From Escherichia coli (lineage in GTDB: Bacteria > Pseudomonadota > Gammaproteobacteria > Enterobacterales > Enterobacteriaceae), in the NCBI RefSeq assembly GCF_050320075.1, contig NZ_CP190018.1: a stretch of 64,000 bases of DNA. The stretch is one strand, 5' to 3'. Numbering within the stretch: position 1 is the first letter of the stretch; every line of letters starts with the position of its first letter. Below the pieces are notes generated by a model. It saw only the letters and a program-made list of their open reading frames with translations, was not told where the DNA came from and searched no databases. Shown in pieces: positions 6,087 to 60,829 of this stretch. Position numbers and translations under genes: made by a program.

Positions 6087-6179
6087 GGTGAGGTGGCCGA
6101 GAGGCTGAAGGCGCTCCCCTGCTAAGGGAGTATGCGGTCAAAAGCTGCATCCGGGGTTCGAATCCCCGCCTCACCGCCA
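6087..6179 (+). tRNA. serV: tRNA-Ser (anticodon GCU)
   Basis: 93-nt sequence GGTGAGGTGGCCGAG..CGCCTCACCGCCA with long variable arm, anticodon loop CUGCUAA, 3' CCA. Confidence 0.95.
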
Positions 6180-6182
6180 TTT

Positions 6183-6259
6183 GCATCCGTAGCTCAGCTG
6201 GATAGAGTACTCGGCTACGAACCGAGCGGTCGGAGGTTCGAATCCTCCCGGATGCACCA
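6183..6259 (+). tRNA. argV: tRNA-Arg (anticodon ACG), copy 1
   Basis: 77-nt GCATCCGTAGCTCAGCTGGATAGAGTACTCGGCTACGAACCGAG..GGATGCACCA. Confidence 0.95.
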
Positions 6260-6370
6260 TATTCTACGTACTTTCAGCGATGAAGGTATGGAAGAGGTGG
6301 CGGTAATAACCGCAGGCACCAGGGAGGATAACGTTGCTTTAGCAACGGCCCGAAGGGCGAGCCGCAAGGC

Positions 6371-6393
6371 GAGTAATCCTCCCGGATGCACCA
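6371..6393 (+). pseudogene. tRNA 3'-end fragment (T-arm/acceptor remnant) inside the tRNA-Arg array spacer
   Basis: GAGTAATCCTCCCGGATGCACCA mimics the last ~20 nt of the adjacent tRNA-Arg and is followed by a normal inter-tRNA spacer. Confidence 0.5.
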
Positions 6394-6457
6394 TCTCTTA
6401 CTTGATACGGCTTTAGTAGCGGTATCAAAAAATCTGCAGTAAAGTAAGTTTCCCGAT

Positions 6458-6534
6458 GCATCCGTAGCTCAGCTGGATAGAGTACTCGGCTACGAACCGA
6501 GCGGTCGGAGGTTCGAATCCTCCCGGATGCACCA
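6458..6534 (+). tRNA. argY: tRNA-Arg (ACG), copy 2
   Basis: Identical 77-nt tRNA-Arg sequence. Confidence 0.95.
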
Positions 6535-6596
6535 TCTCTTACTTGATATGGCTTTAGCAGCGGTATCAATATCAGCAGTAAAATAAATTTCCCGAT

Positions 6597-6673
6597 GCAT
6601 CCGTAGCTCAGCTGGATAGAGTACTCGGCTACGAACCGAGCGGTCGGAGGTTCGAATCCTCCCGGATGCACCA
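6597..6673 (+). tRNA. argZ: tRNA-Arg (ACG), copy 3
   Basis: Identical 77-nt tRNA-Arg sequence. Confidence 0.95.
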
Positions 6674-6775
6674 TATTCTCCGTAATCATCAGTGATGATG
6701 GTTAAGATGGATTTTCTTATTTGATATGGCTTTAGTAGCGGTATCAATATCAGCAGTAAAATAAGTTTTCCCGAT

Positions 6776-6852
6776 GCATCCGTAGCTCAGCTGGATAGAG
6801 TACTCGGCTACGAACCGAGCGGTCGGAGGTTCGAATCCTCCCGGATGCACCA
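6776..6852 (+). tRNA. argQ: tRNA-Arg (ACG), copy 4
   Basis: Identical 77-nt tRNA-Arg sequence. Confidence 0.95.
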
Positions 6853-9627: not shown

Positions 9628-9700
9628 GAAAAAGGCCACTCGTGAGTGGCCAAAATTTCATCTCTGAATTCAGGGATGATGATAACAAATGCGCGTCTTT
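9628..9700 (-). ncRNA. micA: MicA (SraD) Hfq-dependent small RNA
   Basis: Minus strand reads GAAAGACGCGCATTTGTTATCATCATCCCTGAATTCAGAGATGAAATTTTGGCCACTCACGAGTGGCCTTTTT, ending in a terminator hairpin; sits between gshA and luxS. Confidence 0.85.
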
Positions 9701-9769
9701 CATATACTCAGACTCGCCTGGGAAGAAAGAGTTCAGAAAATTTTTAAAAAAATTACCGGAGGTGGCTAA

Positions 9770-13823: not shown

Positions 13824-14159
13824 TTATATAATCGCCATCACTTTCCAGGCGAGCCCGTAGGCCAGCGCACTAAGCAGTGTTGGGATGATAATGCTGCGTG
13901 TTTTATAGAAACTGGCACCCAGTACCGCGAAGCCGACCAGCGTGGGCACGAAACGGCGTGTATCGTGCATCACTTCTGGTGCGGTAGAGACAACCAGCAG
14001 AGCGCATATCGAGGCGATGCCAATGGTGTCGAGCAATATGCCTATCGCGCCACGTTTGGTTGGGCGGGCATTACCCACACGCAGGCGCAGCGGCAAATAG
14101 CGGAAGCAATAATTCGCCGCGCCAACCAGTAACCCAAGCAGCAGAACCTCATAGCTCAT
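13824..14159 (-). CDS. ygaH: AzlD-like small subunit of branched-chain amino acid (L-valine) exporter
   Basis: 111-aa hydrophobic ORF overlapping the ygaZ stop; synteny. Confidence 0.85.
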
Positions 14160-14886
14160 CGGGCGCTCCTTGCCAGAATGCCTGGATTAACGCAGTGAGG
14201 CAGCCACAGACAATGCCTGCCAGAATGGCGACGGGAATAGAAAATAGCGTTACGCCTGCAAGGGCACCAACTAACGCTGCGGTAACGCAAAGAGATTGTT
14301 TGCGCTGGAAAGAGGCGAGCAGGAAACTCATAAAGAGTGCCGGAAGCATAAAATCTAATGCTGCTTCAACGGCGGGATATCCTTGCAGCAAGCCGCTGCC
14401 GGAGAATGCCCCTATTACCGTACCAAATACCCACGATGACCATGAACTGAAGGCAATGCCGATCATCCAGTTCTCGCTCCAGCGGCGATTATTGCGTACC
14501 AGTTTTGCGGTTGCGGCGGCAAAAACCTCATCCGTCAGGCCAAATGCCCACAGGGCGGTTTTCGATTTTTGCAGACGCTGAATAATACGGCTACGCAGTG
14601 ACGGGCCATACAAAACATGGCGAACATCCATTGCCATGACGGTCAGTGCAGCAACCCACAAACTACTCCCGGCTGCCAGCATCGCGGTAATGACGAACTG
14701 GCTCGCGCCTGCATAAATGATGCAGGAGAAAAAAACGCTTTCGAGAGGAGAGAATCCCAGACGGGTCGCATTCAGACCGAACGCAAAGGCCACCGGAATA
14801 TAACTAATAACAATCGGTAAACTGTCTTTGCATCCTTCCATGAAGGTCGCCGAACCAGGAGCAGGCTGTGGAGTAGGGCTTTCCAT
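14149..14886 (-). CDS. ygaZ: AzlC-like large subunit of branched-chain amino acid (L-valine) exporter
   Basis: 245-aa membrane ORF; synteny. Confidence 0.85.
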
Positions 14887-15009
14887 AGAGTGTACGCTTA
14901 ACGATTGTTAATATTATAAATAGACTGAATGAATATCTTAACCTTATCAGACTGATGGGCTTCTTAACACCCTTATAAGTGTAAAGCCACGAAAACGGTT
15001 GCTGATTGC

Positions 15010-16194
15010 TTAATTTGCAGCTTCCTGACGATGAAAACCTCGCCACCAGACCAGTAAGTTAACCAGGGCAATCGTCGCGCCAGCCAGACAAACGCCAGCC
15101 CAACCGCCATGTTGCCAGGCTGAGGCTGAAATTAGCGAACCGGCGGCACCGCCAATAAAGTAGCTGGTCATGTAACCTGCGGTCAGGCGATTACGCGCAT
15201 CAGGGTGTATTCGATAAATTACCGTCTGGTTAGTGATATGCACGCCCTGCACGGTGAGATCCAGCACCAGGATGCCGATAATCAAGGCCAGTACGGAAGT
15301 GTGGCCAAACCAGATCGCCAGCCATGAAAGTAATAGCAGCAGCAGACCGAAAGTAGTGGTGTGGTGCGATTTACCCTTATCGGCAAAACCGCCCACCGGA
15401 CGAGCACCCAACGCTCCGGCAGCTCCCGCAAGTCCAAACAGACCAATTACACCATCGCTGTAGTTAAAAGGTGGAGCGGCAAGCAAAAAGGCCATTGAGG
15501 TCCAGAGAATGCTGAAGTTGGCAAAGGTCAGGCAGCCCAGCAACGCGCGGGTGCGCAGAATTTTATCGCTGATAAACATGCTGAAAACGGAACCAAGCAA
15601 CTGTGGGTAGTTGAGGTGGGTTTCTGATTTCATTTGTGGCAGACCACGCCATAATGCCAGCGCCATCAGTGCCATTAACACCGAGGCAACCCAAAAGACG
15701 GTGCGCCAGCCGCCGAGGTTTGCCAGCAACCCGGCAACGGTTCGTGCCAGCAAGATCCCCAACAGCAGCCCGCTCATAATGGTGCCGACCACTTTGCCGC
15801 GTTTATCCGGTGAAGCCAGCGTCGCTGCCAGCGGAACCAGAATTTGTGCCACGACTGAGAATAAACCGGTTAATGCCGTACCGAGGATCATCATCGCCAG
15901 TGACTGACTGCTGGCAGTGATTAACATACCGCCCGCTGCCAGTAAGGTCATCGAGACAATCAGGCGGCGGCGTTCAAACATATCACCGAGGGGAACAAGA
16001 AACAGCAGACCTGCGGCATAGCCCAACTGCGCGGCGGTAACAATAAAGCCCGCCGAACTGGCGGAAAGGGAAAAGTTACGCGCAATGGTGTCGAGCAATG
16101 GCTGGGCGTAATAGTTGCTGGCGACCGCCAGACCGGTGGCGATAGACATCAGTACGATCAGTGCCGGGCTAAGCTCATGATTAGGTTTAGTCAT
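15010..16194 (-). CDS. ygaY: MFS transporter, apparently intact here
   Basis: 394-aa uninterrupted 12-TM-like ORF at the position of the split ygaX/ygaY locus of K-12. Confidence 0.8.
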   Translation of the reverse strand: MTKPNHELSPALIVLMSIATGLAVASNYYAQPLLDTIARNFSLSASSAGFIVTAAQLGYAAGLLFLVPLGDMFERRRLIVSMTLLAAGGMLITASSQSLAMMILGTALTGLFSVVAQILVPLAATLASPDKRGKVVGTIMSGLLLGILLARTVAGLLANLGGWRTVFWVASVLMALMALALWRGLPQMKSETHLNYPQLLGSVFSMFISDKILRTRALLGCLTFANFSILWTSMAFLLAAPPFNYSDGVIGLFGLAGAAGALGARPVGGFADKGKSHHTTTFGLLLLLLSWLAIWFGHTSVLALIIGILVLDLTVQGVHITNQTVIYRIHPDARNRLTAGYMTSYFIGGAAGSLISASAWQHGGWAGVCLAGATIALVNLLVWWRGFHRQEAAN

Positions 16195-16646
16195 TATTTT
16201 TGTTCATCAGGTGATGATTAAGCTGGAAATCAATAATAGCGGATGTTGATGAATATGGGGCGAAAGATAGATTGTTAAAATGTGCGGGTAATGGGGAGAG
16301 GGTATTTGAAGGTGAAATATGCCACTAAGGCAAATGTTACGTTCACTTCCAGATTATAGCTACTTTGTCACTATTTTGCTGGTGAACGTGCCAGGGTGGC
16401 TCAGTCGCCACCACCCTGGCGACCCAAACTTTTGGCACAAAATCGCCGCTACGCGGTACATTCGACTTATTTCTTACGGCTATCGGGTACGGGCGCGAGG
16501 TAACATCCCTGTAAGACGCGCCCTCGCCGCGCATCCCTGCGCGTCGCCCCGGCCTTCAGAAAACGTCTCATCGATTTTCAGCCGGATTAAAACCATCGCT
16601 GCAATTGTTTTACTCACATGAGCATTATCTGCGCGGTTATCAATAT

Positions 16647-17639
16647 TTACTTCTGCGCTGCCAGCGCCTCATTCACCCAGCCATCGAACTGCTGCTGGTG
16701 GGCTTTGATCCAGCCATCAACGTGGCCCTGAATATCGCCTTCTGAGGCTTTGCCGTCATGCATAATGGCGTTCTGGGCGTTAATATCTGCCACTGGTAAC
16801 TGCATAATGGCAAACAGTTTCGCTGCTGCCGGGTTTTTCTCGGCCCAGGCTTTGTTGGCAACGATATGCATGGTACTGACCGGGAAGCCGTAATTCGCGC
16901 CATTCGGCAGTTTGGTATCGGCATTTTTATCGCCCGGCAGTGCGGAGAACGGCACCTGCAACCAGACCACATCTTTCCCCGGTTTCAGTTCGTTACTCAC
17001 CCAGTACGGCGTCCAGGTGTAGTAAAACACCGGCTTACCCTCTTTGTAACGACTGATGGTGTCAGCCATCATCGCTGCGTAGTTCCCCTGATTATGCGTC
17101 ACGGTATTGGTCAGTCCATACGCGGCAAGCTGGTGGTTGATCGCACCTTCGCAGCCCCAGCCAGGGTTACAGCCAGTCAAATCCGCTTTACCGTCGCCGT
17201 TGGTATCGAACAGTTTGGCGATCTTCGGATCTTTCAGTTGCGCGATGTTGGTGATTTTGTACTGGTCGGCAGTTTTCTTATCGATCAGGTAACCCTGTGC
17301 CGCGCCGTTAACAAATACTCCTTCACGATAAAATTTCTTATCGCCACCGGCAGCTTCGTACATGTTGTCATGCAGCGGCGTCCAGTTCACGGCGGTGAAG
17401 GTTGCATCGCCGGAAGCAAGCGAGGTGTAGCCAACGTTGTAATCCACTTCGCTGGGTTTATTGACGGTATAACCTAATTTCTCCAGTGCACGACTGACCA
17501 GCAGCGTCTGGAAGGTTTCTTCAGTGATGGTGCTCTGAACTGGATTAACAGTAATGCCTTTGCCCGGCAGATCGGCAGCAAAAGTTTGTGTAGAGATAAG
17601 CGTGGCAAACGCTGTCGCAAAAAGTACGCTATGTCGCAT
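16647..17639 (-). CDS. proX: Glycine betaine/proline ABC transporter periplasmic binding protein
   Basis: Internal start [21 protein letters not shown] (signal peptide) gives 330 aa; track ORF extends 14 codons upstream. Confidence 0.93.
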
Positions 17640-17696
17640 TGTTATTCCTTTTTTTGGCAGGGTGATAATGCCCGGCGTCACCGGGCAAGTGCAGAG

Positions 17697-52630: not shown

Positions 52631-53222
52631 GGGACACCTCCACCACCGGCAGACGGGCAGCAAGGGAGAGCACATAGTCACGGACAAGGGAACGGCGGGC
52701 ACTGCGTTCATCACCGGCGACGGTGCGAAGCATACAGATACGGGGATGACGGTCTGCGCGACGGACAGCCGCAAACACAAAGACAAATTCAGGGTGTGAG
52801 GGGGTAAGGGTTGTAGCCATGATGGCAGCCTCCTGTGAATAGCAAATAACGCTATCGCCGGAGTTCTCACGCTCGATGGCGATAGCCCAGACGGGGGTGA
52901 GAATACCGGCTTCACAGGATACCGGCCAGCCCGGAGGCTGCCCCGCCTGAGCTACCATTGACTCTGCGGCATAATGAGCGGACGCGGGCAGGATGCACGG
53001 AATGCCATCTGCACGACTGACCACACACCACACCATAATCTGGCGCTCTGTGGCATTGATTGCGACACAAAAAAAGACGCGTGGCGCGTCATATGTCGCC
53101 TGTGAATTGCTCGGGTTCTCACGCCCGGCTGCCGATTTTGCGGCAGCGGAAAAACTATATCCGCAAATGCCGGAAAAAGGCAAGCCAGAAAAAGGGACTT
53201 TTTGCAGAGCGGGCATCATCAT
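52623..53222 (-). CDS. 199-aa hypothetical protein (P4 orf199-like)
   Basis: ATGATGATG at 53222-53214 overlaps the vis stop (ATGA coupling); track ORF 52623..53267 extends into vis in another frame. Confidence 0.5.
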
Positions 53223-60466: not shown

Positions 60467-60829
60467 TGGTGGAGCTGGCGGGAGTTGAACCCGCGTCCGA
60501 AATTCCTACGTCCTCGGTACTACATGCTTAGTCAGTCTTTACATTCGCTTGCCAGCTGCGGACGGACACGCCACTAACAAACTAGCCTGATTAAGTTTTA
60601 ACGCTTCAACCCCAGGCAGGGCTTCCACGCGATCTCTTTTGGGTTTGACCTCTCTTGATCCCCGTCCTAAGAGCGGAGGCTAGGGAGAGAGGGCTCTAAG
60701 CAGGTTATTAAGCTGCTAAAGCGTAGTTTTCGTCGTTTGCGACTATTTTTTGCGGCTTTTTACGAGGCCAACCGCCCCTCGGCATGCACCTTGGGTTTCG
60801 CAAATCCCGTCGAATCCAGAATCAGCCCC
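60467..60829 (-). ncRNA. ssrA: tmRNA (SsrA), 363 nt
   Basis: Minus strand reads GGGGCTGATTCTGGATTCGACGGGATTTGCGAAACCC..; tag ORF GCAAACGACGAAAACTACGCTTTAGCAGCTTAA (ANDENYALAA*); 3' end ..GCCAGCTCCACCA. Confidence 0.97.

Follow-up and report, generated by a model that had tools for sequence, protein, structure and literature searches.

The MFS transporter YgaY has a described relative in YnfM (b1596; TCDB 2.A.1.36.1, the 'acriflavin-sensitivity' family), an exporter of glutarate/dicarboxylate and multidrug type. In Escherichia coli BL21(DE3), YnfM is reported to export glutarate in a CCCP-sensitive manner, and in Corynebacterium, too, it acts as an exporter (PMC12622518; also PMC12014714); its deletion in BL21(DE3) abolished detectable glutarate export (PMC12622518). 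TCDB places YgaY (P76628) in the YnfM family as 2.A.1.36.3, without an assigned function (PMC5417439), and our literature search found no experiment on the intact protein. In E. coli K-12, a ygaY deletion has been used as a neutral control (10.1101/072470), metabolic engineers have integrated constructs into the chromosome at this gene (PMC11731478), and a study of proVWX chromatin described the 'crypticity of ygaY', with nine in-frame stops, and reported that H-NS bridges ygaY and the downstream regulatory element of proU (PMC10656529). That ygaY is a pseudogene in K-12 is already known and stands in the reference annotation, and an intact copy is ordinary.

Two described repeat or RNA families are relevant to the spacer that separates ygaY from proU. 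TRIP1 repeats have been surveyed by Li et al. 2024, who reported five loci after filtering for >80% length coverage of the reference TRIP1, with TRIP1a at NC_000913.3 915016-915281 (PMC10888264), and the TwoAYGGAY RNA family has its own published description, which we used for comparison (PMC2864571).

Here we evaluate ygaY and its surroundings in a window of 64,000 nucleotides of E. coli DNA (RefSeq assembly GCF_050320075.1, contig NZ_CP190018.1). We consider it very probable that the ygaY of this window is the ancestral, intact allele of an Escherichia/Citrobacter core gene encoding a predicted 12-helix transporter of the YnfM family, which a 7-bp deletion truncated in the K-12 lineage.

Results and discussion

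The intact gene and the lesion in K-12

The ygaY coding sequence occupies positions 15010..16194 of the window on the minus strand and consists of a single uninterrupted ORF of 394 codons plus stop, with an ATG start, a stop codon within these coordinates, and a translation free of frameshifts and internal stops. A chance ORF is ruled out by the match to Pfam MFS_1 (PF07690; E 2.4e-41, 142.3 bits against a gathering score of 33.4), which makes YgaY a member of that family. E. coli strain YZLc1-3 (from chicken, China) matches the window at 100% identity between positions 14900 and 16320, and its RefSeq annotation has this 1185-bp CDS as that of an intact MFS transporter under WP_106475234.1. 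The ORF listing, the Pfam match and this annotation together confirm the intact 394-aa membrane ORF of the original prediction, which had also correctly placed the gene beside ygaZH and proU. According to the ORF list and RefSeq annotation, proV, proW and proX lie upstream, with proX, the last gene of proU, at 16647..17681 as the immediate neighbour, and ygaZ (L-valine exporter subunit; 14149..14886), ygaH, mprA(emrR) and emrA lie downstream, all of them on the minus strand.

In K-12 MG1655 the orthologous locus (b2681; UniProt P76628; TCDB 2.A.1.36.3), identified by its proX - ygaY - ygaZ position, its shared flanking genes and 96.5% nucleotide identity to the window gene, is annotated as a pseudogene of 1178 bp at NC_000913.3 2808316..2809493, and a PGAP-annotated K-12 derivative notes its ygaY as 'frameshifted'. 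The original prediction gave this locus as a disrupted ygaX/ygaY gene. Of this, the ygaY pseudogene stands, whereas the name ygaX for an upstream fragment is borne out indirectly, through the tag b2680, which is missing from NC_000913.3 between proX (b2679) and b2681 in a way that fits the merging of two former ORFs.

When the window gene was aligned globally with NC_000913.3 2808316-2809493, the comparison proposed along with the original prediction, one lesion appeared: 7 bp missing in K-12 at gene nt 255-264, equivalent to window 15931..15940 on the minus strand. This deletion is the sole indel and the only frame-breaking difference between the two alleles, which are otherwise set apart by 39 substitutions (37 synonymous and 2 nonsynonymous). 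Seven of the ten bases are gone (GGCAGCG to AGCGGGC), the exact placement being ambiguous by three bases owing to a GGC direct repeat on both flanks, and because GGC flanks the deletion on both sides, it probably arose by replication slippage between the two triplets. In the window, where the bases are present, they encode residues 85-88 (LAAG), which fall inside TM helix 3 (residues 75-94) as predicted by the AlphaFold2 model. In K-12, by contrast, the frame shifts after codon 85 and runs into a stop at codon 89, such that the deletion truncates YgaY at 88 residues, with the remainder of the gene readable in another frame.

Other lesions of the K-12 laboratory lineage include the ilvG frameshift and rph-1, which, like the ygaY lesion, are small frameshifting indels found only in K-12, in genes that are intact in most natural isolates. 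The ilvG and rph-1 lesions, however, have known phenotypes, and no ygaY counterpart to these is known. K-12 is in effect a natural ygaY null, and the substrate of YgaY would be findable only in non-K-12 backgrounds or after restoring the 7 bp.

Family membership and predicted structure

As judged from sequence, YgaY belongs to the YnfM family (TCDB 2.A.1.36). The two proteins align over their full length by BLASTP (K-12 YnfM; 77 bits, E 7e-20, 25% identity over 409 columns) and by hhalign (probability 99.7%, E 3e-27, 362 columns), both are 12-TM MFS proteins, and they have in common a TM1 signature Y-x-Q-P-L/I-L and a motif-A-like G-D/P-L-x-D...R-R/K loop. At only 25% identity they nonetheless represent separate subfamilies, and their genomic contexts differ, with ynfL-ynfM for YnfM versus proU-ygaY-ygaZH for YgaY.

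The YgaY family itself comprises 1,147 representative clusters at E<=1e-30, and a 92-sequence alignment of it shows conservation of Y28 and Q31-P32-L33 (TM1), P68-G70-D71 (motif A loop), R151 (TM5), D272, and D312 (TM10), of which R151 and D312 may form an intramembrane charge pair. Motif A (G-x-L-x-D-R-x-G-R-R/K, TM2-TM3 loop) is recognizable at residues 66-77, VPLGDMFERRRL, with the central G replaced by E; all 92 sequences have P68, and conservation of G70 and D71 is 90% or more. Reading of the sequence finds DHA1 motif C (G-x8-G-x3-G-P-x2-G-G) absent from TM5, GTIMSGLLLGILLARTVAG, which is glycine-rich (G137-TIMS-G142-LLL-G146-ILLA-R151-TVA-G155) and without the G-P...G-G element, and in which G137, G142, G146, R151 and G155 are conserved in the same alignment.

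Neither YgaY nor any of 91 homologues reaches the cut-off of a curated NCBIfam model. YgaY scores 50.5 bits against a cut-off of 200.9 for TIGR00710 (Bcr/CflA), 50 against 303 for PRK11102, 36.9 against 479 for EmrD, and 50.6 against 400 for Cmx/CmrA, while the best of the 92 family members attains E 1e-22 at best with the curated DHA1 models, and the best full-length NCBIfam model of a family other than YnfM gives 64 bits. The full-length NCBIfam similarities of YgaY are all to efflux families (SotB-type PRK03545, Cmx/CmrA, Bcr/CflA and EmrD).

Structure prediction with AlphaFold2 from the 92-sequence alignment gave a confident model (pLDDT 95.4, pTM 0.93) with a pattern of 12 TM helices. Searching the PDB by sequence returned weak matches only; searching it with the model (Foldseek) matched 462 MFS chains at E<=0.001, at the top of which were the DHA1 antiporters SotB (6kkk/6kkl), MdfA (4zp0/6euq) and NorA (8tte), at TM 0.80-0.84 and 15-18% identity. 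These superpose on the model with an rmsd of 2.5-3.3 A over about 385 residues and display the same 12-helix two-bundle architecture. Because the curated models and motif C do not apply to YgaY, we do not claim strict DHA1 membership (TCDB 2.A.1.2) and treat the predicted likeness as a resemblance.

Transport direction and substrate

The YgaY fold alone cannot separate exporters from symporters, but considered together with the family it leads us, with modest confidence, to favour export. The intact protein would then use proton coupling to export a small metabolite or xenobiotic and would switch between inward-open and outward-open states as do its DHA1-type structural neighbours and YnfM. 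That YgaY serves as a redundant exporter of glutarate is improbable in view of the ynfM knockout in BL21(DE3), at least under those conditions, and since YnfM exports glutarate there without detectable backup, the substrates of YnfM and YgaY probably differ.

The direction might instead be inward, with intact YgaY acting as a solute:H+ symporter. Such an importer would be in keeping with the best partial NCBIfam match, in which the N-terminal half alone fits TIGR00895, the subfamily of aromatic acid/H+ symporters, at 77.6 bits, with the D-galactonate:H+ symporter and G6PT among the structural neighbours (TM about 0.80), and with the lack of the strict antiporter motif C in the sequence as read. 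We regard it as possible but doubtful, as the full-length similarities are without exception to efflux families, the top structural matches are DHA1 antiporters, and export has been shown for members of the YnfM family, the nearest one in sequence.

Distribution of the two alleles

Evaluating the lesion across the species, we surveyed complete E. coli genomes with an 80-nt query spanning the K-12 junction, which found matches in 5,405 of them. The K-12 junction (80-nt span, 7 nt deleted) was present at >=99% identity in 354 genomes, and the junction carriers listed were K-12 laboratory derivatives in 60/60 cases (MG1655, C600, J53, DH5alpha, DH1, NCM3722, HMS174, RR1 and others). All other matches, in about 5,050 genomes, had an 87-nt span with the 7 nt kept, including a subset of 1,098 genomes in which the flanks are identical to K-12 (92.0% identity = 80/87). 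About 93% of complete E. coli genomes have the intact state at the lesion site, a survey of integrity that covers the K-12 site only, and gene length was followed in 36 sampled genomes, where a spread sample from the full-locus search showed no net length change in 36/36 non-K-12 full-length matches. Intact ygaY is the species norm, with K-12 exceptional and the window strain typical.

Outside E. coli, a protein search recovered 394-aa orthologues in E. fergusonii (97-98% identity), E. marmotae (98%), E. albertii (95-96%) and Citrobacter (93%), the last of which retains the gene order nrdEF-proVWX-ygaY-ygaZH-mprA-emrAB. Because the listed carriers of the deletion are K-12 derivatives, the outgroups encode 394 aa and the Citrobacter gene order is kept, these comparisons identify intact ygaY as ancestral and the 7-bp deletion as specific to the K-12 lineage.

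Several observations concern individual strains and haplotypes. The window belongs to a minority ygaY haplotype, with only 295/5,418 genomes at least 99% identical to it over 14900-16320. A candidate second frameshift in strain 99COLEC, whose match is 11 bp longer, was rejected; ygaY itself is intact in that strain, whose additional bases belong to a spacer with two BIMEs. Strain PCP06021 (seawater, Galapagos; locus L007, 2696-3158) has undergone an independent natural deletion of the whole of ygaZ together with most of ygaY and the 5' part of ygaH; what is left of ygaY, 159 bp, is fused next to a shortened ygaH.

Selection and expression

Nei-Gojobori estimates gave a dN/dS of 0.018 between window and K-12 ygaY (37 synonymous and 2 nonsynonymous differences, dS 0.13) and of 0.043 between window and Citrobacter ygaY (179 synonymous and 39 nonsynonymous differences, dS 1.08). 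These values indicate that ygaY is under strong purifying selection and that the intact form is maintained. The K-12 pseudogene shows no further decay, and its lesion therefore appears to be recent. The claim of the original prediction that this strain keeps a functional transporter gains indirect support, from the intact ORF, the dN/dS of 0.02-0.04, the syntenic 394-aa orthologues and the confident 12-helix model. The synonymous divergence from K-12 (dS 0.13) is, as a separate observation, high for a within-species comparison.

The 92 bp directly upstream of the ygaY ATG (16195..16286, minus strand), presumably the 5' UTR/promoter, are conserved between the window and K-12, and most E. coli matches to the 14900-16320 query end at window 16286/16287. 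A simple scan found no sigma-70 promoter or terminator between proX and ygaY, and its overall counts were not above those of shuffled sequences. Since no sigma-70-like site was found and H-NS has been reported at K-12 ygaY, ygaY may be expressed weakly or only under certain conditions. A promoter-like TTAAGA-17-TATAAT (10/12 matches) occurs at 14941-14913 on the minus strand, within the 123 bp that separate ygaY from ygaZ, and transcription of ygaZH may be independent of ygaY.

Such observations raise a reading in which intact ygaY is effectively silent or dispensable, a cryptic and decaying gene that it would be an overstatement to call functional and whose loss from K-12 would be inconsequential. 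Consistent with it are the missing promoter consensus upstream of ygaY, the H-NS signal together with low, insulated transcription at K-12 ygaY (PMC10656529), the normal growth of K-12 and the neutral-control use of its ygaY deletion (10.1101/072470), as well as the independent deletion of ygaY, ygaZ and 5' ygaH sequence in PCP06021. We nevertheless consider it very improbable, as a dN/dS of 0.04 at a dS of about 1.1, along with 93% protein identity to Citrobacter, requires long-term purifying selection, the length of 394 aa is conserved across genera, and losses are rare, with 5,413/5,426 genomes keeping at least 80% of the locus and 13 falling short. That the allelic difference is an artefact (K-12 being truly intact behind an old sequencing error, or the 7 bases of the window being an assembly error or secondary reversion) has next to no probability. 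It was considered because single-indel differences are a classic error type; no support for an error was found here, and the reading is already refuted by the identical junction in 354 independently assembled K-12-lineage genomes, the 87-nt form in about 5,050 others, the long form in the outgroups, and the independent flagging of K-12 derivatives as 'frameshifted' by RefSeq PGAP. The reading we retain remains that of a maintained, intact gene lost by frameshift in the K-12 lineage.

A TRIP1-like element in the proX-ygaY spacer

The window and K-12 also differ in the spacer upstream of ygaY, which carries a BIME in K-12 and a TRIP1-like element in the window. The variable part of this spacer (16287..16646) measures 360 bp in the window, versus 99 bp with one BIME/REP pair in K-12, and it holds two BIME units in 99COLEC, which match Rfam naRNA4/CssrE. 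Within it, positions 16373..16603 (sense on the minus strand) hold a divergent repeat of the TRIP1 family, assigned from homology to TRIP1a, covariation and a sub-threshold Rfam TwoAYGGAY match.

The full insert is found at proX-ygaY in about 547/5,426 genomes. Its 142-nt core, on the other hand, is present in 5,425/5,426 E. coli genomes, where it occupies a median of 3 places and at most 9, almost all of them unannotated, and it also occurs in Klebsiella and Citrobacter. The core had no match in the phage collection searched, and a plasmid origin was rejected, as the plasmid matches were mostly chromosomes mis-filed as plasmids; one of these, the Klebsiella pneumoniae chromosome CP125156.1, matches the element in 11 places.

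The copy that almost every genome shares sits between aqpZ and lysO, where it coincides with K-12 TRIP1a. Read from 16603 to 16373, the window copy is 74% identical to TRIP1a nt 2-238, rising to 83.8% over the 142-nt core. Blastn aligns only this core, which is 53% of the 266 nt and below the length coverage used in the published survey, and proX-ygaY and yegH-asmA are absent from the five TRIP1 loci published there (PMC10888264). Because of this short blastn coverage and the unpublished locus, the window element represents a divergent, unlisted type of TRIP1. An identity as the 'RSA' repeat found no support in literature searches and gave way to the documented TRIP1 identity. Nor can the element always be a 3'-UTR appendage, given that at aqpZ-lysO its sense strand opposes both flanking genes.

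The yegH-asmA spacer is a second unlisted site (strain D10, locus L008, 2501-2710; isolate 602, locus L009, 2501-2707; also loci L010 and L011), where the copy is about 82% identical to that of the window, occurs in roughly 1,400 genomes and is flanked by REP units; in strain MINF_9A it is truncated beside an IS110 transposase. In Citrobacter freundii, the torD-yeiP spacer holds two TRIP1-like copies head-to-head and about 100 bp apart (locus L016, 1258-1404, minus, and 1501-1704, plus). A by-product of this work is the addition of two unlisted chromosomal sites for divergent TRIP1 repeats.

To evaluate structural conservation, we aligned eight copies, drawn from E. coli, Klebsiella and Citrobacter. 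The consensus has 70 pairs, of which 30 show compensatory double changes, and 94.9% of cells paired; 0/500 shuffles attain these values, and only 2-6 compensatory pairs arise in slid controls. Conserved G·U accounts for about 34 cells as against 5 A·C cells, which points to the minus strand of the window as the structured one, and because G·U pairs are conserved on that strand, selection on RNA is favoured over a DNA cruciform.

In the predicted architecture, a long closing stem, itself covarying, is combined with a pair of hairpins whose loops have the form A-N-G-G-A-Y and with one more hairpin on the 3' side; the loops of the pair read AGGGAU twice in the window and AUGGAU, ACGGAC and AAGGAC in paralogues. 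An Rfam scan at gathering thresholds was empty across the spacer element, and TwoAYGGAY (RF01731) scores 28.2 bits in the window and 29-31.5 in paralogues, below its threshold of 43; these sub-threshold matches would be explained by the predicted architecture. As a second by-product, the covariation and G·U evidence suggests that selection acts on TRIP1 as a single-stranded RNA whose structure resembles the TwoAYGGAY motif.

One could go further and combine these elements into a picture in which YgaY is an active proton-coupled metabolite exporter, with K-12 as its natural knock-out, that K-12 efflux work has missed, and in which the TRIP1/TwoAYGGAY-like element could alter the extent to which osmotically induced proU transcripts read through into ygaY. 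We consider this combination quite unlikely; if it were true, decades of K-12-based work on efflux and metabolite export would have overlooked YgaY.

Other features of the window

Elsewhere in the window, Rfam matches at gathering level include C4 antisense RNA, isrK and c4-a1b1 at 52875-53160 and 60467-60829 on the minus strand. The tmRNA gene ssrA is about 7 kb away from these immunity RNAs of P1/P7- or P4-type phages, which suggests a prophage or island integrated near it. Also at gathering level, the MicA sRNA lies at 9630-9701 (minus) and a lone tRNA at 40808-40880 (plus), and a cluster of five tRNAs spans 6087-6849 on the plus strand, four of which, at 6183-6849, have identical scores.
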